Source: a virus. From it: a DNA stretch of 64,000 nt. The stretch covers positions 1 through 64,000 of the IMG/VR virus record IMGVR_UViG_3300037193_001286. One strand, given 5' to 3'. This document shows, piece by piece, positions 38,532 through 63,883 of this stretch; the first letter of the stretch is position 1; each line of letters starts with the position of its first letter. The position numbers were made by a program, and so were the translations under genes. The notes under the pieces were generated by a model, which was given only the letters and a program-made list of their open reading frames with translations, ran no database searches and was not told the origin of the DNA.

Positions 38532-38555
38532 CTATTTGAGGGAAAGGACCATACG

Positions 38556-39964: not shown

Positions 39965-40046
39965 GCGCGCGGCATTCTGGATTTCCGTTGCCATCGCCCT
40001 CGCCCTGGTCTTTTTCTTGGCTGCCGCCGCGCTATGATGGGGCGTC

Positions 40047-40274: not shown

Positions 40275-40537
40275 AGTCTATCCGTGAAATCATCGCTTAC
40301 AACAAGGAGCGGATGAAGGACTGCGAGGATGAGATCGCTCGCATCCAGAAGCTGCGCGAGAGCAAGGCTGTCACGACCGATGATCACGACAAGTGGATCG
40401 AGGGCTGGCGCGAGACGCGGGCGTTCTGCCGCGACACTATCGCCTATCTGACGACTCTTGAGCACTTCCAGAAGGCGTTAAAGAAGAAGCCCCCAAGCGG
40501 CGGCAACCGTGGGGGCTTCAACACTACTCGTCAGTAG
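40271..40537 (+). CDS. hypothetical protein
   Basis: ATGA coupling. Confidence 0.45.
   Translation: MKSIREIIAYNKERMKDCEDEIARIQKLRESKAVTTDDHDKWIEGWRETRAFCRDTIAYLTTLEHFQKALKKKPPSGGNRGGFNTTRQ
40480..40518 (-). terminator. terminator downstream of the TROVE gene
   Basis: AAGCCCCCA...TGGGGGCTT hairpin with a T-rich tail on the minus strand. Confidence 0.55.
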
Positions 40538-41855: not shown

Positions 41856-41919
41856 GATCGAAATTCCTTTGGTTGGCCTACGCCACCGTGGGTTTTCCAT
41901 CAGCGCCCAGGAGGAAGGT

Positions 41920-41988
41920 GGGCGGGAATAATCGCCAGACGGTCTGGACATCATTTCAAGTGAAGTAACCGTCAGCTTCGCCACGCCC
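41920..41988 (-). ncRNA. Y RNA-like unit (short); 4th of array in transcription order
   Basis: GGGCG-TGGCGAAG-CTGACGG-TTACTTC-insert-CCGTCTG-..ATTCC-CGCCC, with self-complementary ends. Confidence 0.75.
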
Positions 41989-41997
41989 GTTTTCCGG

Positions 41998-42104
41998 TCC
42001 AGCGGGAACTATCGATACGGTCACATGCCTGATTTGAACAGGCACCACCCGGCTTAAAGCCGATGGTTCATCCACGAAGTATCCGTATCTTACGCCACGC
42101 CGGA
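41998..42104 (-). ncRNA. Y RNA-like unit with hairpin and T-arm; 3rd of array
   Basis: Same scaffold (GATACGG/CCGTATC); insert has TCGG-CTTTAAG-CCGG and T-arm GCCTG-TTCAAAT-CAGGC. Confidence 0.78.
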
Positions 42105-42113
42105 GAAAACGAA

Positions 42114-42251
42114 GGGTCTGGCGGGAATTGACGAAATCGGGCTTTTTGCTGTTGCTCTACCGCTGAGCTAACCCCCTTTCGGGGGTACTGGATTCGAACC
42201 AATGACCTACAGTTTATGAGAAGTATCCGATCTCTTCGCCACGCCAGACCC
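42114..42251 (-). ncRNA. yrlA: YrlA-type Y RNA (circularly permuted tRNA mimic); 2nd of array
   Basis: 10-bp terminal stem GGGTCTGGCG/CGCCAGACCC; T-arm ATTGG-TTCGAAT-CCAGT; acceptor stem ACCCCC-GAAA-GGGGGT; D-arm GCTC-AGCGGTA-GAGC. Confidence 0.88.
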
Positions 42252-42273
42252 TATAAGAATCTCCATAGCGCCA

Positions 42274-42337
42274 ACGGGAATAAGCGGAAACGGTCTGGCT
42301 CTCTATTGACAAGAAGTAACCGTTACCTTCGCCACGT
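42274..42337 (-). ncRNA. Y RNA-like unit (short); 1st of array
   Basis: ACG-TGGCGAAG-GTAACGG-TTACTTC-19 nt insert-CCGTTTC-..ATTCC-CGT. Confidence 0.72.
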
Positions 42338-42347
42338 CAGCAATTAA

Positions 42348-42376
42348 GGAGTAAATGCAAATTTGTCGGATTGCAA
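42348..42376 (-). promoter_or_regulatory. promoter of the Y RNA-rsr operon with CAAATTTG operator
   Basis: TTGCAA-tccGACAAATTTGCAtt-TACTCC (17-bp spacer), ending about 10 nt before the first Y RNA. Confidence 0.55.
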
Positions 42377-42461
42377 GCTTGTAATTACCTAATAGGCATA
42401 TTATCACTATGTACAGAGACGGCCGCTGGGGCTGTCTTCGCTAATTTTGGAGAAACTCATC

Positions 42462-43565
42462 GTGTCGGACGTAATCATTTGCGGCTTCGCCGCCACCATC
42501 CAGTACATCAATCCCAAAAATGTTGAATTCGATATTCACCCGGCAGCCAAGCTGTTTCCAGTCCCGACTTCGGAGGATCGCGCGGCGCTCAAGGCGTCGC
42601 TCGTCGAGCACGGTTTCAGCTCGACCAATCCGATCATCGTCTATGCGGATCGCAATCAGATCGTCGATGGACGGACACGCTGGGCCATCGAAAAGGAGCT
42701 GAAGCGCGACTTGGAAATCCCGGTTGCGTTCGTCCAATTTCCCGATGACGAAGCTGCAAAGCGCTTCGCGCTGTCGCAGAACCTTGGCCGTCGCCACCTC
42801 ACCCGCGAGCAGCGCGACCAGATGATCAACGATCTCGTTTTCGACGGCTGGGCGGTCAAGGACTTGGCCGAGATGTTCGGCATCTCCGAATCGGCCGTCA
42901 CCAAGATCACGACGGAAACCCGCGATCTCATCGAAGAAGAACGCAACAAGAAGATCGTCGCCCTTGTCGACGAAGGTAAAACGCAGCGCGAAGTGGCTGA
43001 GGAAGTCGGCGTCAACGCGGCGACCGTGAACCGCGTGTTGCAGAAACGGACAAAATCCGAAATCGCAACGGACGGCAGCTGGCTGAACAAAAAGCCCGCC
43101 GTCGAGCCTGTCGTCAAGCCGACCGAAATCGATCCGCTGAAGATCACCGCCGTCCAAGCCAAGCAGGACGAGAAGATCGAGCGTCAGGTCGCCAAGAAGG
43201 TCGAACAGGCTCTCAAGGTCGAGCGCAAGAAGCTCGACAAGGAATTCGACGTGAAGGTCCGCGAGGCTGCCGACGCCTTCGTCAACCAGAACATCCTGCC
43301 GGTCTATGGCAAGCGCATCGAGCTGGCCGAACAGATCATCGCCTCGCACAAGGGCGTCATGACGAAGTCCCAGTTCCGCAAGGTGCTGTCTGTCCTTCAC
43401 CCGGATTCGACGCAGGATGAGGAACACAAGAAGAAGCTCGCTGCTGTCTTCGACATGTTCAAGTCGCTGGAACCGGTGCTGATCGAACCCAAGACGGCCG
43501 AAATCGAGCCGCTGGCGGCAACCGTCGAAGAATTCACCGCCAAGAAGACGCGGAAGGCTGCATGA
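42462..43565 (+). CDS. ParB/Srx N-terminal domain protein with HTH motifs
   Basis: 'HPAAKLFP...LKASL.EHG...PI......IVDGRTR...NLGRRHLT'; GGAGA RBS before GTG. Start uncertain. Confidence 0.7.
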   Translation: MSDVIICGFAATIQYINPKNVEFDIHPAAKLFPVPTSEDRAALKASLVEHGFSSTNPIIVYADRNQIVDGRTRWAIEKELKRDLEIPVAFVQFPDDEAAKRFALSQNLGRRHLTREQRDQMINDLVFDGWAVKDLAEMFGISESAVTKITTETRDLIEEERNKKIVALVDEGKTQREVAEEVGVNAATVNRVLQKRTKSEIATDGSWLNKKPAVEPVVKPTEIDPLKITAVQAKQDEKIERQVAKKVEQALKVERKKLDKEFDVKVREAADAFVNQNILPVYGKRIELAEQIIASHKGVMTKSQFRKVLSVLHPDSTQDEEHKKKLAAVFDMFKSLEPVLIEPKTAEIEPLAATVEEFTAKKTRKAA

Positions 43566-43966
43566 TGCGCGCGATCCTGATCGATGCCGTCGAAAAGACG
43601 GTGACAGAAATTGACATGGACGGGAAGCTTCAGAGCCTTTACCGGCTGCTTGGCTGCAATCTGGTCGAGGCAGTGGAGCTGGATGATCGTCATTCCCTCT
43701 GGGTCGACGAGGAAGGCTTGATGGTCGAAAATCCCGGCCCGTTCTTCGCCTTCAAGGGTGGCGAGCGCCCCTACCCGTTCAAAGGCGTCATCCTTGGTGA
43801 CAACCACCAAACTGGAAGCAACACCGATGCCGTCGTTCCGCTGGACGTCGTCCAAAGCGTGATCGAATGGCCCGATGTCGAGTTTGCCGGTTTCGAGGAA
43901 ATCAATGAACCCGGCATTCTTTACGGCGTGCGGGCGGCATTCAGGGACAAAGGGGCGGACGAATGA
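43562..43966 (+). CDS. DUF3846-like protein
   Basis: 'LQSLYRLLGC..VE......LWVDEEGL'. Confidence 0.6.
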   Translation: MMRAILIDAVEKTVTEIDMDGKLQSLYRLLGCNLVEAVELDDRHSLWVDEEGLMVENPGPFFAFKGGERPYPFKGVILGDNHQTGSNTDAVVPLDVVQSVIEWPDVEFAGFEEINEPGILYGVRAAFRDKGADE

Positions 43967-44133
43967 AAGCGATCATCTGTCTCTGCGCCGTGATCGTCAC
44001 GGCCATCGCCATCTACTTCTTCTGGCAGGATCGCGCCGAAAAGGCGGCTTACGCCAAGAATGAAATCTGGCGGAAGCACGATCAAGCGGTCCGGGGCCTT
44101 GAAGAGGCCTACGGCATAGATTTGGACAAATGA
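43963..44133 (+). CDS. small single-TM protein
   Basis: MKAIICLCAVIVTAIAIYFFWQD...; ATGA coupling. Confidence 0.4.
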   Translation: MKAIICLCAVIVTAIAIYFFWQDRAEKAAYAKNEIWRKHDQAVRGLEEAYGIDLDK

Positions 44134-44135
44134 GA

Positions 44136-44396
44136 ATGAAGAGATTCCTCATCGCTGCCGCAGCGATTCTTGCGGCAACTGGCGCATATGCCGTCGATAC
44201 CTACGAGATCGAAGTCGCCGCCGACGATGAACTGTTCATCATCAACGGCGAGCGGTTCGAGTCGAAAACCTACTGCCTCGGATGGGAAGAAGGCGAAGAC
44301 GTGATCTTCATCGACGGTAGCGCGAACGGCGTCTGCCTCTCAGCCGAACTCTACAATTTGAATCGCAGGGAATCCTGCGAAGTCTGGTGCGAATGA
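44136..44396 (+). CDS. small secreted Cys protein
   Basis: Signal peptide; 'DELFIINGE.F..KTYC...C.VWCE'. Confidence 0.6.
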   Translation: MKRFLIAAAAILAATGAYAVDTYEIEVAADDELFIINGERFESKTYCLGWEEGEDVIFIDGSANGVCLSAELYNLNRRESCEVWCE

Positions 44397-44428
44397 TTAC
44401 TGTCGCACCTAAATCAACAAACGAAATG

Positions 44429-44451
44429 AACCGCCTTCGGGCGGTTTTTTT
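44429..44451 (+). terminator. rho-independent terminator
   Basis: AACCGCC-TTCG-GGCGGTT-TTTTT between convergent genes. Confidence 0.8.
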
Positions 44452-46057
44452 ACGCGATCAGCGCGTCGATATCGACCGAGTTTTCCGTCTCAAGCTTCAG
44501 TGCCGCAATCGCCATGATCGCCGCCACGGCAGGGTCTATGCGCCCGGTGGACTTCGATTTTTCCGGCTTGCGGTTGTTCGCGGCGTCGAAAGCGACCACG
44601 ACGTTGGACATCGCCCAGCGCAGCACCGGATGCCCGCCATGGCGGATGCGCCCCTGTAGCGCCAGCTCCTCGACCAGATCGAGCGACGGCCCCATATCCT
44701 TGAAGCCTTGGCCGTGGCTCATCAGCGGTATGATAAGCCCCTGCCGCGCCAAGGATTGCCGGAAAACGTCGATCCGCCAGCGGTCGTAAGCGATCTTGTG
44801 GAACGGGATCGTCTTCGACAGCTCGCCGATGTCACGCGCAAGGAAGTCGTAATCAAGCGCCTCGCCCGGAACCGGGATCATCAGATCGCGATCCGCCCAT
44901 GCCCGGTATGGCGCACGGTCGCGGATGGCGCGCGCGTCGAGCGTATCATTCGGCGTCCAGATGCGCGGCATCAGATGGATGATGCCCTCGTCATCCTCGA
45001 CCGCCATCACCAGCGCCGAAAGGTCCACCCTCGCCGACAGGTCGAGGCCCGCGCCGACTTTGCGATCCGAATAGAACAATGCCTCATTGATTGCCTCATC
45101 CCCCCTCGCCCAGACCGCCTGAGTGAGGAATGGAGCTTTAGCCTGGACGCGCTGGTTCAGGTACAGATTGCGCACCGACGCTTCCAGCGCGGGCAGCTTC
45201 ACGGCGCGGCCCATCATCGTGCGGAACTCGTCGATGTCGCGATAATCGCCCAGTGTCGGATTGGCCTTCAGCCACTGCTTTTCGTCGAGCAGCTTGCACT
45301 CTGGATCGGCGGCATAGAGGTGAACCGTGAAGGTCTCGTCCTCGATCACGCCCGCCTTCACTTTGAGGCCATAGTCGATCAGTTCGGAAAGAAGGTGCTC
45401 ATCGCTCGCCGCTTGCGTCGAAATAACCATCATCAGCGGCTCGACCTGCGATCCAAGCGACGTCATCAGCGCGTCATAGAGCGCCGAATTCTTCGACTGG
45501 GCCAGCTCGTCATAGATCACGAAATCCAGACCCTCGCCGAATGCGCCACCGGCATCCGCTGAGATCGCCGTGTAGGTCGAGCCGTCCTCCTTGTGGACGA
45601 TCACCTTCGACGAGTTGATCACCTTCAGCTTCTTCATCAAGGCGCGATTGCGGAAGACGATGGTCGCGACCAGGCGGTGGATGATGCCAGCTTGCTTGCG
45701 GGTCGTCGCGGCGCTGACGATCGTCGAGTTCGGCTTCTTGAATGGACCGACCAGGTGCAGCAGCAAGATCACCGCCGCAAGCAGCGATTTCCCAGCGCGC
45801 CGGCCGACTGAAAGTATCCCTTGCCGCCTTTTGCGCCGCCCATCCTCTGTTCTGGGGTTATAGACGTCCCGGATGAAGTCGATCTGGAACTGTCGAAGGC
45901 GAAGCGGCTGGTTGACATATTTACCGGCCGGGACGACCAGCGAATGAGCGAACGCGATGGCCAAGCCCGATGGCAGATCCCAGTCCTCTTTGGGAACGTC
46001 CAGCGCCTTCATGCGTCGATGCCGGAGTTGCCGTTTGTCCTTCACGATCTGGTCCAT
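44450..46057 (-). CDS. terL: terminase large subunit
   Basis: Walker A 'GRRAGKS', Walker B 'VIYDEL', 'ISTQ', nuclease 'GLDLS...DLSA' and 'RIDPAVA'. Confidence 0.93.
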   Translation of the reverse strand: MDQIVKDKRQLRHRRMKALDVPKEDWDLPSGLAIAFAHSLVVPAGKYVNQPLRLRQFQIDFIRDVYNPRTEDGRRKRRQGILSVGRRAGKSLLAAVILLLHLVGPFKKPNSTIVSAATTRKQAGIIHRLVATIVFRNRALMKKLKVINSSKVIVHKEDGSTYTAISADAGGAFGEGLDFVIYDELAQSKNSALYDALMTSLGSQVEPLMMVISTQAASDEHLLSELIDYGLKVKAGVIEDETFTVHLYAADPECKLLDEKQWLKANPTLGDYRDIDEFRTMMGRAVKLPALEASVRNLYLNQRVQAKAPFLTQAVWARGDEAINEALFYSDRKVGAGLDLSARVDLSALVMAVEDDEGIIHLMPRIWTPNDTLDARAIRDRAPYRAWADRDLMIPVPGEALDYDFLARDIGELSKTIPFHKIAYDRWRIDVFRQSLARQGLIIPLMSHGQGFKDMGPSLDLVEELALQGRIRHGGHPVLRWAMSNVVVAFDAANNRKPEKSKSTGRIDPAVAAIMAIAALKLETENSVDIDALIA

Positions 46058-46067: not shown

Positions 46068-46532
46068 TCAATCCCCGGCACCATCCATCAGCCAACCCAT
46101 CTCGTCATCGGGATCGACTTTCGTCGCCATGATCCGCTGGCGAGCGACCGGCGACAGCCCCAGCTCCGCGCCGCAGGCATGCATCTCCCGCTGTAACCCG
46201 TTCATGGCCGAAAGCAGCGGATGTTTGATCACCCCTTGAGGCGTCTTCACCAGCATCCCATCCGCCTTGACCGCCTCGTCAGCCTCCCGCCACCTCGCCC
46301 AAGCGACCACGTACCTCTCCATGATCGACGTGTCGGCCCTGGCGAGCACTCCGGCCGGTAAAGAGGCGACAACGAAGCGCCAAAGTGCCTTTTCGGTCGG
46401 CGTGAGATGATCTGGTGGTTCCAACGTGCCAACGCCCTCGATGCGTGGTCCCTGGCCCTTTTTCCCTACATGGGAGCGGTCGCCCTCGCTTTCCTTGACG
46501 ATTGCGAGCTTTGGTTTGCGTCCTTGCATCAC
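46068..46532 (-). CDS. terS: terminase small subunit (P27 family)
   Basis: 'GRKPK', 'PPDHL', 'HPLL' and 'ELGLSPVAR'. Confidence 0.88.
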   Translation of the reverse strand: MMQGRKPKLAIVKESEGDRSHVGKKGQGPRIEGVGTLEPPDHLTPTEKALWRFVVASLPAGVLARADTSIMERYVVAWARWREADEAVKADGMLVKTPQGVIKHPLLSAMNGLQREMHACGAELGLSPVARQRIMATKVDPDDEMGWLMDGAGD

Positions 46533-46629
46533 TGATACCCGTCAAAATGCGTTTTTCCTCATATAGGGCTACAGGTTACCGGAAAGGCAACCATTTCGCC
46601 AAATAGGGCCAAAAAGATTTTCCCGAAAG

Positions 46630-46710
46630 TGGTAGTTGTTGGGGGCCGCCGGTCCCGGCCGGGGTATATGACGTTTTGCTAATACCCCCCCCCTCCTCCG
46701 CCCTGGTTGG
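46630..46710. other. probable cos / packaging site
   Basis: Intergenic between HNH and terS (HK97-type layout), with a G9 run on the minus strand and GC-rich inverted repeats. Confidence 0.5.
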
Positions 46711-46777
46711 CGGCCGTCCCGCCTGCCGTTCGACGATCGTCGAGAGGCCGGAGCACTTCGAGCCTTTCGGCCTAGGC

Positions 46778-47155
46778 CTATCGGCCGCTATGCCGCCTCT
46801 TTAGCCGGGCTTGCGTTGTCGGATCGATTGGAGCGGGACGGTTGACCGTGTCGATTGCGGCCGTGTTGTCGGATTGGTTCCATGGGTGATTAGGATCGAT
46901 AGGCATGCCGGACTCGTCGCATGCTCCGGCTAACGTGCCACGGTCATAAGCGGCCGTAAGGACTCCATGGTGAAACTTGCATAACGATTGCAGATTGGAC
47001 GGATCGAGTCGGCGATTAGGCGCATTCTTGACCGTGACAATATGGTCCACAAAAACCGCACGCTTTCCGCATCCTTTAACGACGCATGCAGGATTGTGCT
47101 TTAGATGCTTTGCCCGGAGTCGGTTCCATTCTTTGCTCTGGTAAAATCCCGGCAT
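46778..47155 (-). CDS. HNH endonuclease (gp74-like terminase cofactor)
   Basis: 'FYQSKEW...C...C....VDHI...NLQSLC..HH'; adjacent to terS. Confidence 0.85.
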   Translation of the reverse strand: MPGFYQSKEWNRLRAKHLKHNPACVVKGCGKRAVFVDHIVTVKNAPNRRLDPSNLQSLCKFHHGVLTAAYDRGTLAGACDESGMPIDPNHPWNQSDNTAAIDTVNRPAPIDPTTQARLKRRHSGR

Positions 47156-47179
47156 TTCATCAAACCTGCAAAATAGGCC

Positions 47180-47208
47180 TTGCTATTCGTCAAACTTGCC
47201 TTTATGTA
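47180..47208 (+). promoter_or_regulatory. early promoter (related copies at 48026, 49073, 50445)
   Basis: TTGCTA-N17-TATGTA with GTCAAACTTGCC in the spacer. Confidence 0.65.
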
Positions 47209-47246
47209 CATGGTCAACAACAACCACACACATAAGAGGCAAGGCA

Positions 47247-47729
47247 ATGATAACCGCTCAAGAGCTAGTTAACCGTGAAGTGCACTATTGCGTTTCCAGT
47301 CTCGTTTCCACGCTTGCCGGTGGCTATTCGGTAGTTGACCATAAAGCCCGCGACCTAAGCGAGCTTACCGAGCAAGCGGCCGAATTGTGCTACCCCATAG
47401 ACGATTACGAGGAAGCCGCTATTCAAGCCGGTTGGACTCGCAATGCGCATAACGGCATGTTCGTTGCGCCTACCGGGCATGAGCCACGCATGGCCGATTA
47501 TGACGATTGGCGCGAGCTTTGCGAAGATAACGACATTGAACCGTATCAGCGCGAAGTGTTCGAACACTGGATTGTGTCAGATTGGTTTGCGGACAAGCTC
47601 GCCGAAAAAGGCGAAAAGGTCGACAAGGACTTTGCCGGTTTGACCGTTTGGGCACGTACCACGACGGGACAAGCAATCTACATGGATAGCGTCATTGAAA
47701 CCATTCACGCGGAATTGGTTGCGCGCTAA
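47247..47729 (+). CDS. hypothetical early protein
   Basis: AGGCAAGGCAATG start motif; 'EVFEHWIVS.W...WARTTTGQAI'. Confidence 0.7.
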   Translation: MITAQELVNREVHYCVSSLVSTLAGGYSVVDHKARDLSELTEQAAELCYPIDDYEEAAIQAGWTRNAHNGMFVAPTGHEPRMADYDDWRELCEDNDIEPYQREVFEHWIVSDWFADKLAEKGEKVDKDFAGLTVWARTTTGQAIYMDSVIETIHAELVAR

Positions 47730-47765
47730 CGCGCGCGACTCTCTCTTATTAGGGAAGGCAAGGCA

Positions 47766-48011
47766 ATGAAGCGCTGGAATAACACAAACAAAGTTATCGT
47801 TTCGCGGGACGAAGTCGCACGGTTCAACAGTCAATGGCCGTGCAGCGAATTGCGCGACTCGCGTTCCTATTGGTTTGAGTTTGACGACAATGGCGACTTA
47901 GTCGACCACGATGTCCCGCAACAGGATGACGGGACGGCGGCGCGCGCGATGGCGGACGATTGCCGCGCATGGCTCTTCGATGACGACACTCCGGAATGGT
48001 CCGACAAATAA
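47766..48011 (+). CDS. hypothetical early protein
   Basis: AAGGCAAGGCAATG start. Confidence 0.65.
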   Translation: MKRWNNTNKVIVSRDEVARFNSQWPCSELRDSRSYWFEFDDNGDLVDHDVPQQDDGTAARAMADDCRAWLFDDDTPEWSDK

Positions 48012-48090
48012 TCACATTTGCCCTATTGCTATTAGTCAAACTTGCCATATGGATATGTGCATAGACAACGCGTCACGAAAGGCAAGGCAA

Positions 48091-48339
48091 ATGAAACGCA
48101 TTCTCGCAACCGCAACCGCTCTTTTCGCGCTCGCAAGCTCCGGCTTTGCGGCCGAGTCCGCACGCTATGAATTGCGCGTGGAATACAGCGGAAACGTCTA
48201 TACGGCCGATTATGGCCTAACCGGAGACGATTGCTTGATTGCTCTGGATCAATTCCGGGCAAAGCGCATGCTTGAAATCAGCTCCGGAGACTTCGTTTTG
48301 ATAGCGGACGACTCCGCAAGCTCTTGCGTAGGGGAGTAG
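48091..48339 (+). CDS. secreted hypothetical protein
   Basis: AAGGCAAGGCAAATG start; signal peptide. Confidence 0.6.
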   Translation: MKRILATATALFALASSGFAAESARYELRVEYSGNVYTADYGLTGDDCLIALDQFRAKRMLEISSGDFVLIADDSASSCVGE

Positions 48340-48344
48340 CGGCA

Positions 48345-48650
48345 ATGGCAAAAGTCACGGTTGATAATTCGGGCAATCTGTATCCGGGCACGGTCTCAAT
48401 TGCGGACTTGGCCCAGTTTCTTCCAATCCTGAACAACGACTCCAATTGGCTCGACATCTATCTAGTCGAGTCCGCGATGGCGGAAGCATGGCCGCATGAA
48501 ATCGAGCGGTTCGAATATGAGTTTGCAACCGGCTATTCGGCTTATTTCAAGGACGGGACGGCAATTCATATAGGCGCGTGGATGGATAGGGACGAACACG
48601 AGTCCGCGCGTCTGTGGCGCGCTATGAAGGCAAAGGAAGCAAGGCAATGA
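48345..48650 (+). CDS. hypothetical early protein
   Basis: GGAG RBS and GGCAATG start. Confidence 0.6.
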   Translation: MAKVTVDNSGNLYPGTVSIADLAQFLPILNNDSNWLDIYLVESAMAEAWPHEIERFEYEFATGYSAYFKDGTAIHIGAWMDRDEHESARLWRAMKAKEARQ

Positions 48651-48877
48651 ATTTTGCACAATCGGCAACATGCGGCTTTGTGGAGCTGCTAGACGCAAAA
48701 GGAGACGGTTCGCACTTCATTCGTGCAGCTCATATCGTCCGGATTAGTCCGGCATTTGACGCGGATGGCGTATGGACGCATTGCGACGTTTGGACAATCG
48801 ACGGCCGCACGACATGCGTTAACGCGACGTTTGAGCAAATTGCGGAAGCGATTGAAGCGGAGACGGCAAGGCAATGA
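48647..48877 (+). CDS. hypothetical early protein
   Basis: AAGCAAGGCAATG start. Confidence 0.6.
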   Translation: MNFAQSATCGFVELLDAKGDGSHFIRAAHIVRISPAFDADGVWTHCDVWTIDGRTTCVNATFEQIAEAIEAETARQ

Positions 48878-49050
48878 CAACGGTCAACAGCTACGAAAAA
48901 GCCGCGCGTCTAGCTGGTTGGGAGCTTCGCACTTTCGGCAATGGAGTCGCGAAATGGTGGAATCCGCAAAATGATGACGGAAGCCGCTATGTCAACAACG
49001 AACGCGCGTCTCGGTACATCTGCGAAGATTACGGCATAAAGCCGGAATAG
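48874..49050 (+). CDS. hypothetical early protein (58 aa, not in ORF track)
   Basis: GGCAAGGCAATG start; MTTVNSYEKAARLAGW...ICEDYGIKPE. Confidence 0.6.
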   Translation: MTTVNSYEKAARLAGWELRTFGNGVAKWWNPQNDDGSRYVNNERASRYICEDYGIKPE

Positions 49051-49138
49051 GCACAATTAATCAAATTTGCCATTGCTATTAAGCAAGTTTGCCTATATGT
49101 AAGAAGGCATAGGGCAAACACGCTTTGGAGCGAGGCAA

Positions 49139-49279
49139 ATGCATAACCTACCGGCTTTCATTTCTTTCAACGTCGCGGCCGTCGCGCTGATTCTCATGAT
49201 TGCGATTCCCGGCAATCCGCTGAACGAACTAACGCGCGGCGCAATCCAGACTTTCGTTTGTGAAGGGGCTTGCAAATGA
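49139..49279 (+). CDS. small membrane protein
   Basis: GGAG RBS and AGGCAAATG start after promoter 49073. Confidence 0.45.
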   Translation: MHNLPAFISFNVAAVALILMIAIPGNPLNELTRGAIQTFVCEGACK

Positions 49280-49800
49280 TCACGGCAAAACCAGAGATGA
49301 CCGCTCACTATTTGGGAGTCGTTCGCGGCCGTTGCGACGGTCAACCGATTGTTGACGTCATGACGGGAAAGGTTTTGCCCGGTATCTGCCGGACATACGT
49401 TCCATGCCAACTAGACGGCAATCATGCTTATTTCGATCTGGGCGGCTATTCGTGGCGCGTTCCGCTCGATGGCACGGCTTGTGAGCGGTTGCCACGGACT
49501 CACGTTTACGTGTTGCACCTTTCCAAGTCCCGCAACGGATTCGGAAAGCCAACCGTGCCCGCTATCCGCTCCGCTCACACTGGGCACTATATCGCGGAGA
49601 CAGGCACAACAGTTAAGCCGGATTCGGCCGCTATTCGCGCGGCATTGCCTCACTACTACCGGAAAGCGTTTGACCGCGCGTGCGGCGCAATCTGGTTTGA
49701 TAAACACGACGACAACAAACCGGCTTACATAACGTTACGGGACGCGCGCGGCCGTTACCTGAACACGGTCTATTGTCTATTGAGCAAGATGGAAGGTTAA
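49276..49800 (+). CDS. hypothetical early protein
   Basis: ATGA coupling. Confidence 0.55.
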   Translation: MITAKPEMTAHYLGVVRGRCDGQPIVDVMTGKVLPGICRTYVPCQLDGNHAYFDLGGYSWRVPLDGTACERLPRTHVYVLHLSKSRNGFGKPTVPAIRSAHTGHYIAETGTTVKPDSAAIRAALPHYYRKAFDRACGAIWFDKHDDNKPAYITLRDARGRYLNTVYCLLSKMEG

Positions 49801-49804
49801 GGCA

Positions 49805-50416
49805 ATGCCGGAATTCATCCTGAACACTGACGGCGCAACGGCCGATAATTGGCACAATCTCGACTCCTTCACGCAAGGCTTTATTGAAGCCGCGTTTTTC
49901 TCCGATTCCTCTTGCTTTGACTCGTCCGAGTTCTTCGGAGATGAGGCACAAGAGCGAGTCCGCGAAGGACAAGCGGACGGAAGCATTCCGAATGATGCGG
50001 GACCGTCCGATATAGACGCGGAGTCCCTTGCCAAGGTTAAGGCCTTTTGCGCGGCATTCCAGACGCGTGCAGCGGACGTTCTAACGGAAGCTTACGAACG
50101 CGAGTATGACGAAACGCAAGCCGGACGGGACTTGTATTTCACCTATGCCGGGCACGGAGTCGGCTATTGGGATAGGGATGCATTGAAAGCCAATGACGCG
50201 GACTTAGAAGAGTATGAGCGTTTGACGGCCGTTATGATTGCAAACCGCGACAACAATGCAAAATGGGATGAAGCGCTATCCGCACGGCATGAGGTGGAAT
50301 CGCGAGGCATAGGGAAACGGCTTTCCAAGCTTTGCGGCCGTGGCGAAATCAATCTGGATGCATACGAGTCGGAAGAGTCGGAAAGCGGTTTTTACGTGTC
50401 GTTTTATATCGGCTGA
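49805..50416 (+). CDS. acidic hypothetical early protein
   Basis: AAGGCAATG start; 'GRDLYFTYAGHGVGYWDR'. Confidence 0.65.
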   Translation: MPEFILNTDGATADNWHNLDSFTQGFIEAAFFSDSSCFDSSEFFGDEAQERVREGQADGSIPNDAGPSDIDAESLAKVKAFCAAFQTRAADVLTEAYEREYDETQAGRDLYFTYAGHGVGYWDRDALKANDADLEEYERLTAVMIANRDNNAKWDEALSARHEVESRGIGKRLSKLCGRGEINLDAYESEESESGFYVSFYIG

Positions 50417-50511
50417 TTTATGTACATTTTTTTGATTTAGGCTCTTGCCTATTCGTCAAATTTGCTCTTATATACCTCTCAGGCAAACACAAATGCATGA
50501 GAGGTTTTTTT

Positions 50512-50739
50512 ATGAAGAACATGACTCGCCATACCGGCAAGCTTGAAATTATCAAGCGCTTGCCTTCGTCCGCAAACGGCAATCCGCGATACCTGCTTAA
50601 GGTTGACGGTTGGACTTGCCGCACGGCCGTAGACTCTTCGCTCGGTTATTCCGTCACCAATTTTGACGGCAAAACCGTGCACGCGACAATCGGCACACAT
50701 TACGGCAATGCAACACTGGACTCGGTTCAGCTCGCTTAA
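50512..50739 (+). CDS. hypothetical early protein
   Basis: GAGG RBS after promoter 50445; 'SANGNPRY'. Confidence 0.6.
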   Translation: MKNMTRHTGKLEIIKRLPSSANGNPRYLLKVDGWTCRTAVDSSLGYSVTNFDGKTVHATIGTHYGNATLDSVQLA

Positions 50740-50756
50740 CTCCGAAAGGCAAGGCA

Positions 50757-51005
50757 ATGACAACGGTTATGCTCGACTCATACGATCCGGTAAAGAATAG
50801 CGGCGGACTCTGCCGTGACTTCACGACAGACGGTTTTCCTATTCGCCTTTATCAGCATAGGACGCGGAAAGAACGCGGCTTTGCGGTTCAGTACGGAAAG
50901 CAATTCGACATTTACCTAACCTATTCGGAAGCGTGCAAAAAACTAGGCGAAGCGCTCATGCATGACGCGGCTTGCCGTGGCGAACTCGACAACGAAAGGG
51001 ATTAA
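50757..51005 (+). CDS. hypothetical early protein
   Basis: AAGGCAAGGCAATG start. Confidence 0.65.
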   Translation: MTTVMLDSYDPVKNSGGLCRDFTTDGFPIRLYQHRTRKERGFAVQYGKQFDIYLTYSEACKKLGEALMHDAACRGELDNERD

Positions 51006-51007
51006 TC

Positions 51008-51250
51008 ATGATACCGATTAACGTTCGCGTCTTTAACTTTGGCACGGTTCAATTCTGGAATAGTTACCGCAAACATACGAACGCGCGGACGTGGCGCGGA
51101 GCAATGCGCACATTTGCCGCGCAACACGGCAAAGCAATTGCAATGCGTTGCGACGGTTCAGCATTCCTCGTTTATCGCGACGAAGGCAATAAGAGCGGAT
51201 TCCGGCAGGAAACGATTCCCGCGTCCAATGTTCAATGGCTCAACATTTGA
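51008..51250 (+). CDS. hypothetical early protein
   Basis: AAAGGG RBS. Confidence 0.5.
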   Translation: MIPINVRVFNFGTVQFWNSYRKHTNARTWRGAMRTFAAQHGKAIAMRCDGSAFLVYRDEGNKSGFRQETIPASNVQWLNI

Positions 51251-51318
51251 ACGGCTTATAGAGCGGCCAATCTGGGCCGCTCCGGTAAACCGTTAATCAG
51301 GCAAGGAAAGACAAGGCA

Positions 51319-51717
51319 ATGACATACCATTTCAAATGGCAATCCGGATACATGGGAACCGTCGATTATATGGTGACGGATTCAACCGGGACATTTCGCG
51401 CGGAGCTTAGAACGCAATTAGGCGATTACGAGCGCTCGATTTTGAACTATGACGCGGACGGAATCGCAAAGCACGTCGAGTCCACAATCGGACTTCTTAC
51501 ACGTTGCGTTTGCGACAACCACGGCGAAATTTTACCGGAGACAATCGCCGCTTTTAACGCATGGCGCGCGGACGAACACGCGCGGCAAATGGCGCATATG
51601 CGCGCGCATCCGGAGCGATACGGGACGGAATTTAATGAGCCATGGTTTCAACCGCCTAAACCGGTGCACGCGGGACGTTGGAGTGAACAAACCGGCTGGA
51701 CTCGTGTAGGGGAATAA
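51319..51717 (+). CDS. hypothetical early protein
   Basis: AAGACAAGGCAATG start. Confidence 0.6.
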   Translation: MTYHFKWQSGYMGTVDYMVTDSTGTFRAELRTQLGDYERSILNYDADGIAKHVESTIGLLTRCVCDNHGEILPETIAAFNAWRADEHARQMAHMRAHPERYGTEFNEPWFQPPKPVHAGRWSEQTGWTRVGE

Positions 51718-51722
51718 CGGCA

Positions 51723-52046
51723 ATGGAAAAGCAAACGACGTTCCGCAAACATAGCTGGAAAGTCCCGGTGCGTGCGGGAAAGACTGTCGAGCAAAACGGC
51801 TATGCTACGGCTAATTTCGGCATACATAAACACTATGACAATTGGTGTGTAACGCATTTGCCTACCGGGCTTGCGATTGACTATTTCCGCTCCAAACGGC
51901 TTTCCATGGTCAAATCAATTGTTGCGCGTGCGGAAACGGTTTTCGATTGGTCAACCGGAGCGGACGTCTATGAAATCGCGGCACATAACCGAATTGACGC
52001 GCGCGCATTCAATGACGCGGTGCGGGACATTGGACGCGGTCAATAG
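51723..52046 (+). CDS. hypothetical early protein
   Basis: GGCAATG start; 'W.VTHLPTGL'. Confidence 0.6.
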   Translation: MEKQTTFRKHSWKVPVRAGKTVEQNGYATANFGIHKHYDNWCVTHLPTGLAIDYFRSKRLSMVKSIVARAETVFDWSTGADVYEIAAHNRIDARAFNDAVRDIGRGQ

Positions 52047-52058
52047 AAAGGCAAGGCA

Positions 52059-52448
52059 ATGGCAAATCACGACACAAGCCGCTTTTGGGCATGGTTTGAC
52101 GCCACGCGGAACGCTGCAATCCAGACGGATGACGGCCGCAAGTTTCATGCGGCTGGATTCGACCTAACCCATACCGGAGGAGGTTGCACGGCATGGGAAC
52201 GCGCCATACCGGGCACGGATTGGCTTATATGGATTGCTACCAGTGAAGCCGGGCATGAATTGACTCCAGCGGATATTGAAGCCGGAGACGATTTTGGCGC
52301 GTGGATTGTGCACAAGGAAGAGTCGCACCATTCGCGCGCGCAAAACGCGAACACGGTTGAAGGCGTATTGAAGATAGCGGACGAAATGGCCGCGACCGTG
52401 CAGCGTGGCGAAATAGACTCGCTTCATATGGAATACGTCCACTACTGA
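52059..52448 (+). CDS. hypothetical early protein
   Basis: AAGGCAAGGCAATG start; 'HTGGGCTAW'. Confidence 0.65.
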   Translation: MANHDTSRFWAWFDATRNAAIQTDDGRKFHAAGFDLTHTGGGCTAWERAIPGTDWLIWIATSEAGHELTPADIEAGDDFGAWIVHKEESHHSRAQNANTVEGVLKIADEMAATVQRGEIDSLHMEYVHY

Positions 52449-52540
52449 CGGCTTATAGACGGCCGCGCGTTGCGTTTTCGGAGCAATTCCGATTCCGCAA
52501 TGCGGCCGTTCAATAAACTGTTGAGAGGAAAGGCAAGGCA

Positions 52541-52735
52541 ATGCCCGAGTTTGTTGTAATCGCGCATAGGCGCAACGGAAGCGTTTTCGGAGCGGCAACC
52601 GCTATCTGTAAAGACGCGGACGGCAAAGAAAAGACTTATCCAACGCGCGACGCGGCCGACTCCGCTGCAAAGCGCTATAACGACAGAACCACGTCACCAA
52701 ACGTCTATTACACTGTTGAGGAAATGGCGCGATGA
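52541..52735 (+). CDS. hypothetical early protein
   Basis: AAGGCAAGGCAATG start. Confidence 0.6.
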   Translation: MPEFVVIAHRRNGSVFGAATAICKDADGKEKTYPTRDAADSAAKRYNDRTTSPNVYYTVEEMAR

Positions 52736-52959
52736 ATGACTCCATTCTAGCGGACGATACCCGCTATATCATGCGCCGCGACGCGGACGGCCGTTTATTG
52801 GTTCTGACGTTCAGCAATGATGAATTTGCCGACTATTGGACGGCCGCGCAAATAGAGCGTTTCGGCCGCGCGTTACCAGTGACGCGGGACGGATGCACCT
52901 TCGCGGACATGGCCGCATGTACGGCCGAAACAATGCAGCATTGGAGCGAAACGCCGTGA
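52732..52959 (+). CDS. hypothetical early protein
   Basis: ATGA coupling; GAGG RBS. Confidence 0.5.
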   Translation: MNDSILADDTRYIMRRDADGRLLVLTFSNDEFADYWTAAQIERFGRALPVTRDGCTFADMAACTAETMQHWSETP

Positions 52960-53592
52960 TTGCTCCGGAGCTTGAAAATGATGGATAGACCGTTGCGCGC
53001 TGCTAGTCCGCTAGTGGCGCGTTTCCGCATGTTTCGGAGTCTTGCCGTGAACCGTCCAACCGGTTGACGGGACGACTCCGCGTGGCTTGCGGCCGTGGCG
53101 CGGCCGTGCAGCGCGATTCCAGCTCCGGCATGGTGGTTGACCGTCCGGAGCGAAGAAAACGCGTGTACGGCCGTTTATGGCGGTTTGCCTTGCGTGGTTT
53201 CGTTGCCGCATCCCGTTCCATGCTCCGGCATTGGCGCGGAGACGTATGGAAGCGGTTGCGACTCGTCCGGCATGCCGGGAACGGCAAGGCTTAAGACGCG
53301 TTGTGCGGCCGTCTGTGGCGGTTTGGCCGCTTGCCGCTCCGGTTCCATGCCCGGCGATTGGCTAATGGAAGGTGGCGGAAGCGTTCTATGCGCAATGCAA
53401 CCGACGCGTTGCAAAGCAGCCCCTTGAAGCCCCAGCCCATCCCCTAGATTGCGAATTTGGTAGCGACCAGGGCCGGGGGGGGTATCCCGGTTGCTTTTAA
53501 AAAAAATTTTTGGGCACGCTTCCCAAGGCCGGGCGCAAAAAAAGGGCCGGTGAAAAAAATCCGGCCCGAAAAATCTGGGAGGGAATTCCATT

Positions 53593-59540: not shown

Positions 59541-60109
59541 TGATCACCTCCCATGGGGTTTTCGCGCGCGATCCGCTTCAGCGCCGTAAGCATCTCGGCG
59601 CGTGTCAATCGCAAGCCTTGCCGCAGCAAATACTCATAGAGGCCGGAGGCATCCGTCTCGGTGAGCACCCGCATGGTGAAGTCCGGTTCCCAGTCGTCCG
59701 GAAGGCGACCCTTGAGCATGATCTTTTTGGTCGCCAGATCGAAACCAAGGATACCAGAAAGCGCCGGGTCTTCCCTCATCGCAATCGCGGCGTTTGCCGC
59801 TCCCTTGAGCGGTTTGCCGGTGTCGTCCCGGATGAGTTGCTGATGCCATTCCGGCGTTTGCGGCTTTCGCGGTCGCGGCGGATTGAAGCCGCGCTGCCGG
59901 TATTCCTCGGCGAATTTGCGGAACTGATCTTTCTGGCAATCCGGCCGGTGCGTCTCGCCCTGGTCGGCGTCGCACCAGAGGCATCCGCCATCGTGGCGAA
60001 CGGCTTGCTCGAATTCCGGGCCGAACGTCCCGTTCCTCAGCGCCATGAAGAAAGTCACGAACGATCGACGATCGAGGTCAACGAGGAAGCGGAGCATATC
60101 CTTAGACAT
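59537..60109 (-). CDS. hypothetical replication-region protein (VapE N-terminus-like C-terminal half)
   Basis: GGGAGGGG RBS; 'N...A...DP.L.G.LGFD'. Confidence 0.45.
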   Translation of the reverse strand: MSKDMLRFLVDLDRRSFVTFFMALRNGTFGPEFEQAVRHDGGCLWCDADQGETHRPDCQKDQFRKFAEEYRQRGFNPPRPRKPQTPEWHQQLIRDDTGKPLKGAANAAIAMREDPALSGILGFDLATKKIMLKGRLPDDWEPDFTMRVLTETDASGLYEYLLRQGLRLTRAEMLTALKRIARENPMGGDQ

Positions 60110-61617: not shown

Positions 61618-62132
61618 GCCATCTTCTCCCAGAAGCGGATTTCATGGACGGATGAGGCCCAGAGGCCGATCAGGATCGCCTCGGCTTCATCGACGGATCG
61701 GTATTTGATGTTCAGGTGCTGGCAGGTCTCTTTGGCGCGGCGCTTGGCCACCTCGCGCGACAGCTTTCCGTCGCCCAGAATTGCCGCTCGCCATGTGGCG
61801 ACCGCGACGCCCAGAAGGTGGATGTCGAGCGCTGCGCCGACGCCAATGATCGCGCCTTCGATATTGTGCAGGATCATCGACGCCGCGTTCGGCGTGACGA
61901 ACCCTTCGTTACCGGGCAGCAGTCCCTTCTTGCCGTACATCTTGATCGAGCGGATCGCCCGTTCGAAGACAATGACCTTCGGTCGCCACTCGCCGACAAG
62001 CAGCGTGAACTTCTGGGCGAAGTCCTCGACGCCATCGGATCGCAACGTGCCGGATGCCATGCACTCTCGACCGTCGAAGATCGCCCAACCGGACGCGGTC
62101 TTGGATGGATCGACGGCGAGGACGCGCATCAT
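61614..62132 (-). CDS. RuvC-like Holliday junction resolvase
   Basis: 'VLAVDPS...GWA', 'IVFE', 'TWR' and 'DEAEA'. Confidence 0.75.
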   Translation of the reverse strand: MMRVLAVDPSKTASGWAIFDGRECMASGTLRSDGVEDFAQKFTLLVGEWRPKVIVFERAIRSIKMYGKKGLLPGNEGFVTPNAASMILHNIEGAIIGVGAALDIHLLGVAVATWRAAILGDGKLSREVAKRRAKETCQHLNIKYRSVDEAEAILIGLWASSVHEIRFWEKMA

Positions 62133-63607
62133 GCCGCACCCCCGAACAATGGCCCGGCGTCGAGTTCGGCTTTTCCGGATCGCTTGATAATCTCGCGCGC
62201 TTTCTCATCCGGCCCGGCGAGGCAGAGCCGCATGCGTTCGGCGATGTCTTGCTGATATTCCGGTTCGCGCTCGACCAGGATCGCGTTGAAGCCTTCGCGC
62301 CAAGCCGCCTCGCCGGTCGTTCCGGTTCCAGCGAATGGATCGAGCACGGTGCCACCGGGCGGTGTCACCAGCCGCACGAGGTATTGCATCAGATCGACAG
62401 GCTTCACGGTCGGATGTTTCGATCCGATGCGGTCCTCGGCGTCGGCTTTGGCAGAATAGAAAAGGCTCGATGGCGGCACGCCCGCACGGCGCGCGCCCGG
62501 TAGCATGGCGAAGTCGGTCGCGCCTGCCTTGTCGTAGCGCCGCAAGGCCGATGGCTCGTCCGGCCGGGCCGCATAGAAGAAGCGAGCTGCGGAACCTGTG
62601 TCCTTCACGCCGGGGCGCGTGATCCCGTTCGCCCCACCATGGTAGCCCATCGTTCCGTTGGGATCGTTGTTCCCGCCGATCTGCCCATCGACCTGCGGGA
62701 AGCACGCGATCACCTCGTCGCTGCCGTCGTGGATGACGTTCGCGGGCCAGCGGCCGGTCGAGGTGTCGATCTCGCCGGTCCGGTTGCTGCCGTTCTTTCC
62801 ATCGCCATAGCAGTTCAGAGCCGCTTCGCCGCGATGCGTGAACTTCGGTACGCCGTCCGGAGCATGAACCCGGCACGCGTCGATGTTCACCGCGCCCGTT
62901 TCCCAGAACAGGATGTTGGCCGCGCCGTTCCTTTCGGTGAAGGGCTTCTGGCCCATATAGATCGGCTCGATGGCTGGTTTCAGCGACTGCCCGCCGTAGT
63001 GCCAGCCGTTCCACCTTGCCGCTTCCGCCGATCCCGGAACGTAAGCGCCCGGTTGATAGACGCGATCCTCAAGCTTTTCCCAGCTGCCGTCCTTGTTCTG
63101 GTCCGCGCCTGGTCGGATGCGGCGCACGGTATTGCCGTTCGCCATCTTCTCACCTTCCCGGCCCAGCTCCTTGTCGATGGCGCGGGCGGCATTGTGTGCC
63201 TTCGGGAACCCGGAACCGAAAATCCATGCGATCAGCGGATGGGTGATGAAGCCCGCGTCTTCGATGGCGACCGACATTCGGCCGAAGCCGCGCGTCGAGG
63301 CGAAGGCCAAAACGTAACCGCCCGGTTTCAGAACGTGGAAGACGGCTTTCCATGTCTCGACACGGAAAGCGACGTCGCCGCCGTCCCAGAGCTTGTTCAT
63401 AAAGCCGCGAGCGGTGCGCTGATGCGGCCCGCTTTTCGTCCGAGTCTTGTCGGTTCGACCGGTCTTGGCGAAGCGCTTGGTGATACTGTGAAGATGGTAC
63501 GGCGGATCGCAGACGACGGCATCGACGGAATTCTCCGGCATGGCCGCGAGCGCGTCGAGGCAGTCGCCGGGATACAGGATGACGCGGCCGTCGAGGAACG
63601 AGATCAT
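62129..63607 (-). CDS. N4/N6 DNA methyltransferase (beta class)
   Basis: 'DPPY', 'HPTVKP' and 'LDPFAGTGTT'; ATGA coupling at 63607. Confidence 0.9.
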   Translation of the reverse strand: MISFLDGRVILYPGDCLDALAAMPENSVDAVVCDPPYHLHSITKRFAKTGRTDKTRTKSGPHQRTARGFMNKLWDGGDVAFRVETWKAVFHVLKPGGYVLAFASTRGFGRMSVAIEDAGFITHPLIAWIFGSGFPKAHNAARAIDKELGREGEKMANGNTVRRIRPGADQNKDGSWEKLEDRVYQPGAYVPGSAEAARWNGWHYGGQSLKPAIEPIYMGQKPFTERNGAANILFWETGAVNIDACRVHAPDGVPKFTHRGEAALNCYGDGKNGSNRTGEIDTSTGRWPANVIHDGSDEVIACFPQVDGQIGGNNDPNGTMGYHGGANGITRPGVKDTGSAARFFYAARPDEPSALRRYDKAGATDFAMLPGARRAGVPPSSLFYSAKADAEDRIGSKHPTVKPVDLMQYLVRLVTPPGGTVLDPFAGTGTTGEAAWREGFNAILVEREPEYQQDIAERMRLCLAGPDEKAREIIKRSGKAELDAGPLFGGAA

Positions 63608-63816
63608 CGGCGAGGTCTCCGATGGTCCCGCTGGTGCCAACAGCGGTCATGGTGCTCTTCGCAAAAAAACGAGCCGCGAATGACCGGCTTGCCACAAAAC
63701 ATATACCAACCTGTGATGGTATGGTCCTCATGAACCGGGAACCGACACTGCCGGTCATTGAGGGTATGGAGGGGTGCATTGCATTGTGACTGCTGGGCCG
63801 GTTCAGCTGGCTGCAT
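63604..63816 (-). CDS. GcrA C-terminal (sigma70-interacting, Cys/His) domain only
   Basis: 'L.TL..RQCRFPV........FCG.P...GS.FC.EH'; GGGAGG RBS before ATG 63816. Confidence 0.7.
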   Translation of the reverse strand: MQPAEPAQQSQCNAPLHTLNDRQCRFPVHEDHTITGWYMFCGKPVIRGSFFCEEHHDRCWHQRDHRRPRR

Positions 63817-63883
63817 GATGGTCCTCCCAAACAATAGTACAGGCACGCGAGCGCGGGACGCTCAACGCGAGGGCGGCTGCCTA

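Follow-up and report, generated by a model that had tools for sequence, protein, structure and literature searches.

Why should one block of a phage genome accumulate a DNA word that the rest of the genome avoids, and lose another that the rest carries in abundance? This question is raised by IMG/VR record IMGVR_UViG_3300037193_001286, which is, by its gene calls and family scans, a temperate tailed phage; its 73,858 nt have overlapping ends and are rated complete, and the window analyzed here is their first 64 kb. Within the window, positions 47160–53460 (6301 nt, hereafter the island) contain 47 copies of GANTC (7.46/kb), compared with 116 (1.72/kb) in the remaining 67.6 kb of the 73.9-kb genome (the backbone). 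GATC shows the reverse, with 4 copies in the island (0.63/kb) and 618 in the backbone (9.15/kb). The first-pass annotation had counted about 50 and about 4 sites by hand and proposed that both densities differ from the rest of the genome; the computed counts and k-mer z-scores confirmed it on both points. In order-1 and order-2 Markov simulations, the z-score of the island was +5.0 and +6.0 for GANTC and −3.9 and −2.4 for GATC, whereas GANTC in the backbone fell to z = −14 and −12. In a ranking of island against backbone, GATC heads the depleted 4-mers and GACTC/GAGTC the enriched 5-mers. The GC content also differs (53.7% vs 59.2%), and the island stands out in its whole tetranucleotide signature, which correlates with the backbone at r = 0.485, compared with 0.933 ± 0.021 for backbone windows (z = −21). 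The island is thus firmly shown to be a sharply bounded compartment in which GAGTC/GACTC are selected for and GATC is selected against, opposite to the backbone.

The enriched word is narrower than GANTC, as the excess is confined to the forms with a central G or C. GASTC (GAGTC/GACTC) occurs 33 times in the island against 9.1 expected (z 7.6, approximately 3.6-fold), whereas GAWTC (GAATC/GATTC) is neutral, with 14 against 11.8 expected. The backbone purges both words (GASTC, 49 vs 100 expected; GAWTC, 67 vs 210 expected). The sites are evenly spread through the island genes at a mean spacing of 127 nt. A chi-like oriented signal was not supported, since the plus strand carries 20 GACTC and 13 GAGTC, and a longer motif was rejected because only G or C is preferred at −1 and +1, as is also the case in the backbone. 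Additionally, the HNH gene, with which the first-pass annotation had let the island begin (46.71 kb), is indeed GANTC-rich (4 sites); however, it is not GATC-poor, with 4 GATC within 46735–47002, and the two-sided bias therefore begins at approximately 47.0 kb.

Most of the sites lie inside genes: 41 of the 47 are within open reading frames (ORFs), and 23 of those are read in frame 0 as GAS-TCN, encoding Asp/Glu-Ser. Shuffling the synonymous codons of the island genes gave 26.6 ± 3.2 GANTC against the 41 observed and 14.1 ± 3.0 GATC against 4, and in 500 shuffles neither the GANTC count nor the low GATC count was ever attained; the backbone showed the reverse pattern (GANTC, 79 vs 139; GATC, 546 vs 397). 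Chance or repeats can be discarded as the cause of the excess, given that the Markov and synonymous-shuffle controls hold and that the largest GANTC-bearing repeat family has only four copies. Composition predicts 12.9 Asp/Glu-Ser dipeptides in the island, where 25 occur, and 118 in the backbone, where 86 occur. A TCN serine codon is used in 23 of these 25, and eight of the nine island Glu-Ser pairs use GAG, although GAA is the commoner Glu codon. The codon shuffles and the dipeptide excess therefore indicate that the word is favored in the island at some cost in codons and residues and disfavored elsewhere. The bias is not a property of the encoded proteins, since homologs of island genes in Rhizobium phage RHph_N65 and in two other phages (L100, L101) are encoded with zero or nearly zero GANTC.

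Comparison with relatives that share the backbone points in the same direction. The syntenic phage G002 (~80% DNA identity) has an island with 43 GASTC and 22 GAWTC in 7 kb and GATC at ~2.7–3.4/kb, followed by a backbone with no GASTC and 13 GATC/kb. Across 3,388 aligned island positions (83% identity), 23 of 32 GANTC sites (72%) are retained between the two phages, compared with 52% for all xxNxx words (p = 0.016), and 9 and 12 sites are lineage-specific; in the adjoining backbone, only one of seven is conserved. Cassettes have been swapped within the island between the two, and the unshared cassettes have a site density equal to that of the shared ones. In the more distant relative G001 (~70% DNA identity, 86% terL identity), the island is less pronounced (3.7 GANTC/kb and 4.3 GATC/kb) and shares only three or four genes with that of the phage studied here.

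The same type of island recurs in phages that are otherwise unrelated. Its marker is the gene for a 203-aa island protein (ORF 8, 49805..50416, plus strand; pI [isoelectric point] 4.3, 9 GANTC; phrog_1915, 5e-23), which flags equivalent islands in many phages and, by tblastn, also lies in the terminal repeats of phiCbK-like Caulobacter phages. Among 59 high-GC loci with a homolog of this gene, GATC density drops within 2.5 kb of the gene in 51 (p = 9e-9), GANTC density rises near it in 37, and several loci reach 10–15 GANTC/kb against approximately 2. Whole-genome profiles of five of these phages (G003, G005, G009, G013, and G016) each contain exactly one discrete GASTC-high/GATC-low segment. 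The island-bearing phages share almost nothing else with the window, and their terminases differ, being mostly of the lambda GpA type. Nonetheless, the island/backbone 4-mer ratio vectors of seven phages correlate at r = 0.59–0.76; no 4-mer is depleted more consistently across the seven than GATC, no 5-mer is enriched more consistently than GACTC/GAGTC, and the islands share increases of CTAG, TTAA, and TAA and decreases of CAG and ATC. The 10-kb terminal repeat of CcrRogue likewise has GANTC at 3.7/kb vs 1.2/kb and GATC at 4.8/kb vs 8.8/kb. Because the same island type recurs in unrelated phages, the DNA words themselves appear to be selected. The sole further GANTC peak in CcrRogue (L091), at 47.5–55 kb, coincides with a tRNA gene cluster and is a trap for scans of GANTC density; its source is presumably the conserved T-loop sequence.

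RHph_N65 (L089, MN988536.1) shows near-total avoidance, with 4 GANTC in 48.7 kb, and similar avoidance was seen in eight IMG/VR phages (L129, L130, L139, L157, L169, L173, G044, and G058). On this basis, alphaproteobacterial phages seem, from their genomes, to fall into two classes, those free of GANTC throughout and those with a purged backbone and one rich island. No published description of GANTC-rich phage regions was found in literature searches.

What could such an array do? The host is likely an alphaproteobacterium, because the nearest cultured link is RHph_N65, through a single island gene with 78% amino-acid identity (tblastn), and because homologs of the 203-aa protein also occur in Mesorhizobium, Hartmannibacter, and Paracoccus. 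A close prophage was not found in reference genomes, and the host genus is therefore not fixed; the metagenome runs that contain DNA of this phage are from soil and rhizosphere. The alphaproteobacterial cell cycle is governed by GANTC methylation and GcrA, and phages that infect alphaproteobacteria are known to carry GANTC methyltransferases and GcrA homologs. The present genome encodes a candidate writer, a 492-aa beta-class N6/N4 DNA methyltransferase (62129..63607, minus strand; PF01555, 2.6e-24), whose best solved relative is CcrM (6pbd, 1.1e-18). Its motifs stand in beta-class order, with DPPY at residues 34–37 ahead of the AdoMet-binding DPFAGTGTT near residue 423, and a large insertion separates the two motif blocks; G002 has the enzyme as well. 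Between this gene and cro lies a GcrA-like ORF of 70–80 aa (63604..63846, minus strand; PF07750, 4.6e-7), hereafter mini-GcrA, which corresponds to only the C-terminal, sigma-70-binding part. The profile match spans positions 41–149 when read through one TGA and scores 25.9 bits against a cut-off of 26.9, and the uninterrupted ORF is limited to the C-terminal Cys/His motif, short of the two domains at gathering score that would define a full GcrA. A mini-GcrA homolog is present in G001. Among phages with the 203-aa gene, an enzyme of family PF01555 was found in 7 of 10 strong-island genomes but in 3 of 20 without an island (Fisher p = 0.005), and the enzyme in the window shares 45% identity with that of G003 and 38% with that of G005.

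The reading that we prefer, tentatively and as a possibility rather than a probability, is that the island houses accessory genes, probably of the immediate-early class, of a temperate cos (cohesive-end) phage that infects an alphaproteobacterium and, jointly with this, is a methylation-site array tied to CcrM/GcrA-type control of that early accessory operon. It is favored because the word is a subset of the host methylation site, because the phage has a matching enzyme and reader-like genes, and because GcrA binds best in Caulobacter to a coding GANTC cluster, its top chromatin immunoprecipitation target being a coding stretch with three GANTC (PMC3667746). Under such a scheme, the island words would be N6-adenine methylation sites written by host CcrM, the phage beta-class methyltransferase, or both, and incoming virion DNA would present a dense, fully methylated array in the island block only. 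Host GcrA, which would bind methylated GANTC clusters, including those in coding DNA, and travel with sigma-70 RNA polymerase, might become concentrated on the island and raise its transcription right after entry. Replication would then dilute the methyl marks, the phage mini-GcrA may compete with GcrA for sigma-70, and together the dilution and the competition could switch the block off.

Known systems offer partial parallels. As in the CcrM/GcrA module (PMC3667746; PMC7987155), the word belongs to the GANTC family and is under-represented in host genomes and in the phage backbone, the phage has a CcrM-like beta-class methyltransferase and a GcrA-like ORF, and GcrA binds methylated GANTC clusters, one of them in a coding region. 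However, control in the known module is exerted through one or two promoter sites, whereas the island has ~47 sites that fill gene bodies over 6 kb and none in its promoters; moreover, the island enriches only the subset with a central G or C, and the phage GcrA-like ORF lacks the DNA-binding half. Phage GANTC methyltransferases are reported to be common among Sinorhizobium phages (PMC5537653). The genes of Sinorhizobium and Paracoccus phages resemble the present one in that they belong to temperate alphaproteobacterial phages and are located within the replication/early operon or at its head, and mimicry of host CcrM has been proposed for them. In contrast, the tested enzymes are reported to lack CcrM sequence similarity, the motif given for their family is NPPY/F/W (explicit for the small ones) rather than the DPPY found here, and no site-rich island is described with them. 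The scale of the array also sets it apart from other methylation read-outs. In P1 pac and Mu mom, the methylation state is read out through groups of adenine-methylation sites that lie close to a packaging site or to a regulated gene; unlike the kilobase-scale intragenic array, these groups comprise 3–7 GATC within ~160 bp of non-coding or control DNA.

Several observations weigh against control of this kind. The island carries four homologous, intergenic promoter-like elements on the plus strand, P1 (47180..47210), P2 (48026..48056), P3 (49073..49103), and P4 (50446..50476), each composed of TTGCTA, 17 nt, and TATGTA together with a TCAAAyTTGC direct repeat. They were identified through repeat families (D3/D4), an alignment (A1), and a matrix scan, and they substantiate the repeated promoters predicted by the first-pass annotation. 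All four contain zero GANTC, and known GcrA activation needs a site within the promoter, between or next to the −35 and −10 elements. With the promoters free of the word and 41 of 47 sites within genes, canonical promoter activation by GcrA therefore does not fit. Moreover, the central base is immaterial to CcrM and GcrA, yet the enrichment is limited to GASTC. The methyltransferase scores 67.3 bits on the CcrM equivalog model NF050803, where the cut-off is 830, and G001 has a weaker island without having the enzyme. In an independent sample of ten further phages, picked only for this methyltransferase family and lacking the 203-aa gene, a moderate island was present in three to four and GANTC was purged throughout in four. 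The association was weaker in this sample, which makes the link between methyltransferase and island suggestive rather than firm, and it may in part reflect shared ancestry. Finally, much of the island dialect (more CTAG, TTAA, and TAA; less CAG and ATC) resembles the outcome of relaxed codon adaptation and not a specific signal.

The restriction of the excess to GASTC also speaks for an explanation that does without adenine methylation. GAGTC/GACTC is the site of PleI, MlyI, and Nt.BstNBI-type enzymes, and the sites could be recognized by a phage or host protein that binds specific DNA sequences, such as a nuclease or nickase, and would thereby mark the block for nicking, recombination, or protection. 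The even spread of sites through the genes and the HNH nuclease gene adjoining the island would suit such a role. However, both orientations are present, no flanking consensus extends past the single G or C on either side, and no candidate reader was found; phages with lambda-type terminases also have islands, and in the single annotated flank no HNH gene stands beside the terminase. We consider this explanation very improbable.

The resemblance of the dialect to relaxed codon adaptation leads to an alternative that we regard as unlikely but to a lesser degree, namely that the words have no role here and are inherited from a circulating cassette pool. The island would then be a hyperplastic region whose small genes are exchanged through shared promoter and start boxes, and its k-mers would reflect the pool together with weak codon adaptation. 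The GC content at third codon positions is 0.60 in the island vs 0.73 in the backbone, and its Ile and Leu codons are non-optimal. The outlying tetranucleotide signature, shifted in the same direction in unrelated phages, agrees with a common pool, as does the fast gene turnover between this phage, G002, and G001, and the conserved boxes at cassette borders could mediate exchange. Furthermore, GAWTC, CTAG, and TTAA merely return to expectation in the island. Like morons and hyperplastic regions, such as lambda b/nin and the T4 early region with its promoter-stem-loop borders, the island combines a distinct composition, small genes of unknown function, promoters of its own, repeated borders, fast turnover that leaves relatives with different gene sets, and placement where two modules meet. 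Nevertheless, foreign composition alone does not predict one word that stands well above expectation, is preferentially conserved, and is common to the islands of unrelated phages. A 3.6-fold excess of GASTC goes beyond a mere lack of purging, the codon-context and dipeptide excess and the preferential conservation of sites point to ongoing selection, the same gene families lack GANTC in other phages, and a pool-wide bias would itself need a cause. For GATC, we propose that the purge is partly a by-product of relaxed codon usage, with its few ATC codons, and partly a separate avoidance.

That separate avoidance bears on the idea, put forward in the first-pass annotation, that the island is the first DNA to enter the cell and is shielded from restriction. 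The island does adjoin a likely cos. To its left, on the minus strand, stand an HNH endonuclease gene (46778–47155; Pfam HNH 0.001, 19.6 bits, under the cut-off of 21.4; ortholog at the end of G001), the Terminase_4/P27-type terS (46068..46529; PF05119, 3.5e-21), and terL for the terminase large subunit (44450..46057; Pfam TerL_nuclease 4.6e-40 and TerL_ATPase 1.8e-18), and between the terS start and the HNH stop lies a G/C-rich tract (GGGGGCCGCCGGTCCCGGCCGGGG ... TACCCCCCCCCTCCTCC) that forms the putative cos region (46640..46700). The order HNH, G+C-rich tract, Terminase_4, TerL is that of an HK97-type cos packaging module. The HNH gene is directly upstream of terS and terL as in that module, but its match is sub-threshold and cos is placed only by the G/C-rich tract and by contig breaks. 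Logan contigs from soil runs X1 and X2 stop at 46595/46641 and both restart at 46685, and the G001 contig begins at the equivalent of ~46637; a contig of run X4 bridges the putative cos (46077–46895). No contig breaks at the G8 run at the far end of the island. These data fit, without proving, a physical genome end at ~46.64–46.69 kb. Gene order, contig breaks, and the start of the G001 contig thus support the adjacency of the island to a likely cos, and the island promoters point inward from the cos-side end, which by analogy with lambda alone would enter the cell first.

In its full form, this explanation holds that the end is kept free of GATC against a GATC-cutting host system, that island proteins disarm restriction before the GATC-rich remainder is exposed, and that GANTC is harmless because virion DNA is methylated, in the manner of a first-step-transfer segment. 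T5 first-step-transfer DNA is without EcoRI sites. The island is similarly poor in a palindrome common elsewhere (0.63 vs 9.15/kb), and the depletion exceeds the effect of codon usage, with GATC being a putative restriction target only. Like the T5 segment and the T7 early region, the island is a terminal block of small genes of a putative host-takeover type, several of them acidic, with multiple host-type promoters facing inward from the end, and it lies beside the likely cos on the side that would be packaged last. Islands in five other phages (G013, G014, G015, G016, and G009) are also 1–3 kb from terL and diverge from it as in the window, and the marker gene is found within phiCbK-like terminal repeats. 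However, the islands of six phages with lambda-type terminases (G003, G005, G006, G007, G010, and G011) are 22–30 kb from terL, and closeness to cos is therefore not the general cause of the bias, although it may still be relevant in this phage. In four of them (G003, G005, G006, and G011, the four flanks examined), the island lies directly behind a gene of ~820–840 aa, the annotated G005 copy of which is a Prim-Pol/VapE primase. Unlike T5 and T7, moreover, the phage gives no sign of stepwise or transcription-driven entry and has no detected gene homology to either, and the enrichment of a second word has no counterpart there and is left unexplained. The 618 GATC elsewhere in the genome likewise argue against this explanation, and GATC is near Markov expectation in G001 and in the CcrRogue terminal repeat. 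Thus, the composition switch, the co-oriented small ORFs, the promoters, and the likely cos stand, whereas distant islands, abundant backbone GATC, GANTC-free promoters, and an excess limited to GASTC weigh against first entry and anti-restriction as the cause; we hold this cause to be quite improbable. The bias was also considered as a trait of the HNH-terS-terL lineage and rejected, as no island lies upstream in 19 prophage loci with distant terL relatives, an absence that also counts against the first-entry explanation.

Returning to the methylation-site array that we prefer, we think it doubtful, though worth stating, that temperate alphaproteobacterial phages in general carry a methyl-marked early segment, in which a kilobase-scale intragenic GAGTC/GACTC array, kept in this block alone, written by a CcrM-type enzyme and read by GcrA or another methyl-DNA reader, times the takeover genes. 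If this were true, a phage could distinguish infecting DNA, methylated at every site, from its replicated progeny or respond to the cell-cycle stage of its host, and the array would act as an epigenetic timer without known precedent among phages. The machinery of GANTC methylation and GcrA also gains a concrete and testable target in an accessory block whose array of this word is selected and confined to one part of the genome. Moreover, the GASTC-high/GATC-low signature offers a simple way of finding blocks of candidate takeover or anti-defense genes in uncultured alphaproteobacterial phages. Even if the words are inert, the case documents how sharply motif selection can differ between two compartments of one phage genome.

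The island has 16–17 small plus-strand ORFs, grouped in four units that each follow a promoter/operator of one design, in keeping with the approximately 18 co-oriented short ORFs anticipated earlier. The block separates the packaging operon from the replication operon and is oriented away from HNH/terS/terL and toward the cro operon, with which it converges. Eight or nine of its genes share a start box, GGCAAGGCAATG. Nine of 17 ORFs are acidic (pI 4.3–5.8; seven at or below 4.9). ORF 1 (47247..47729; 160 aa, pI 4.5) matches phrog_26364 (3.6e-6) and is the gene 78% identical to an RHph_N65 hypothetical protein. ORFs 2–4 (47766–48011, 48091–48339, and 48345–48650) are small and acidic and have orthologs in G002; ORF 3 has a signal-peptide-like N-terminus, and ORF 4 matches phrog_31325. 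ORFs 5 and 6 (48874–49050 and 49139–49279) carry the shared start box. ORF 7 (49276..49800; 174 aa) matches phrog_8778 (1.2e-16), and in soil run X2 a variant has an in-frame 243-nt deletion within it (49493–49737). ORFs 9–16 (50512–50739, 50757–51005, 51008–51250, 51319–51717, 51723–52046, 52059–52448, 52541–52735, and 52732–52959) include matches to phrog_20597 and phrog_36600, with orthologs in G002 and G001. Altogether, six island ORFs match PHROG families, every one of unknown function. No Pfam match was obtained for any island ORF and no NCBIfam match for the four searched, and an ESM Atlas search returned only viral hypothetical proteins.

The island proteins are entirely uncharacterized, including the 203-aa family, whose predicted fold is confident and unmatched. 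This family is widespread among alphaproteobacterial phages and prophages. A Pfam domain was found in none of its 247 homologs, and its invariant motifs include GHGVG(Y/F)W and QAGRD. AlphaFold predicts a helical domain with a C-terminal hairpin (predicted local distance difference test score 94.4), for which no solved relative was identified with Foldseek against the PDB (best E 0.24) or in a wide VIA-align search (best Z 3.7).

At its right boundary, the island passes into a gene-poor stretch of ~630 nt (52960..53592) with 4 GANTC, in which the G8 run (53473–53480) is followed by A/T tracts and terminator-like hairpins. This run and a C9 run beside the putative cos (46685–46693) mirror each other and bracket the island. 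A 20-nt inverted repeat (46902–46921 / 53257–53276) also brackets it, pairing at 18 of 20 positions with GACTC/GAGTC in each arm; approximately 0.04 such pairs would be expected by chance in the region.

Elsewhere in the genome, a tyrosine integrase gene (4227–5537) and a cI/cro pair (~63.9–64.6 kb) are present. The cro operon on the replication side runs on the minus strand from 64.1 to 53.6 kb with genes for the mini-GcrA, the N6 methyltransferase, a RuvC-like protein, a C5-cytosine methyltransferase (60102–61412, minus strand; dcm superfamily 7.8e-54, conserved in G001), a helicase, and a DUF4406 protein. The packaging/structural operon, also on the minus strand, is headed by HNH, terS, and terL. 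Rfam and tRNA scans of the 64-kb window revealed no RNA genes.

Between terL and the capsid/portal genes lies a second accessory block (32500–44400; 12 kb, mixed orientation, GC 51–58%), which is not GANTC-rich. An operator word of the island, TCAAATTTGC, recurs at 32788, ahead of a small plus-strand operon. A gene for a Ro60/TROVE and VWA protein (40524–41855, minus strand, and 41900–42400) has ~65–69% DNA identity to Xanthomonas, Brevundimonas, and Caulobacter phage genes; a weaker copy of the island-type promoter/operator at 42376 (minus strand) faces it, and no Rfam family, Y RNA included, reached its gathering score anywhere in the window. Among the structural genes, a 655-aa ORF (30490–32457, minus strand) fuses a prohead protease (S78) with a major capsid domain, and the portal gene (28559–30064, minus strand) unusually sits downstream of this fusion. 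Two long collagen-repeat proteins, one with a C-terminal fibritin domain, are encoded at 25592–28569 (minus strand) and are probably fibers.

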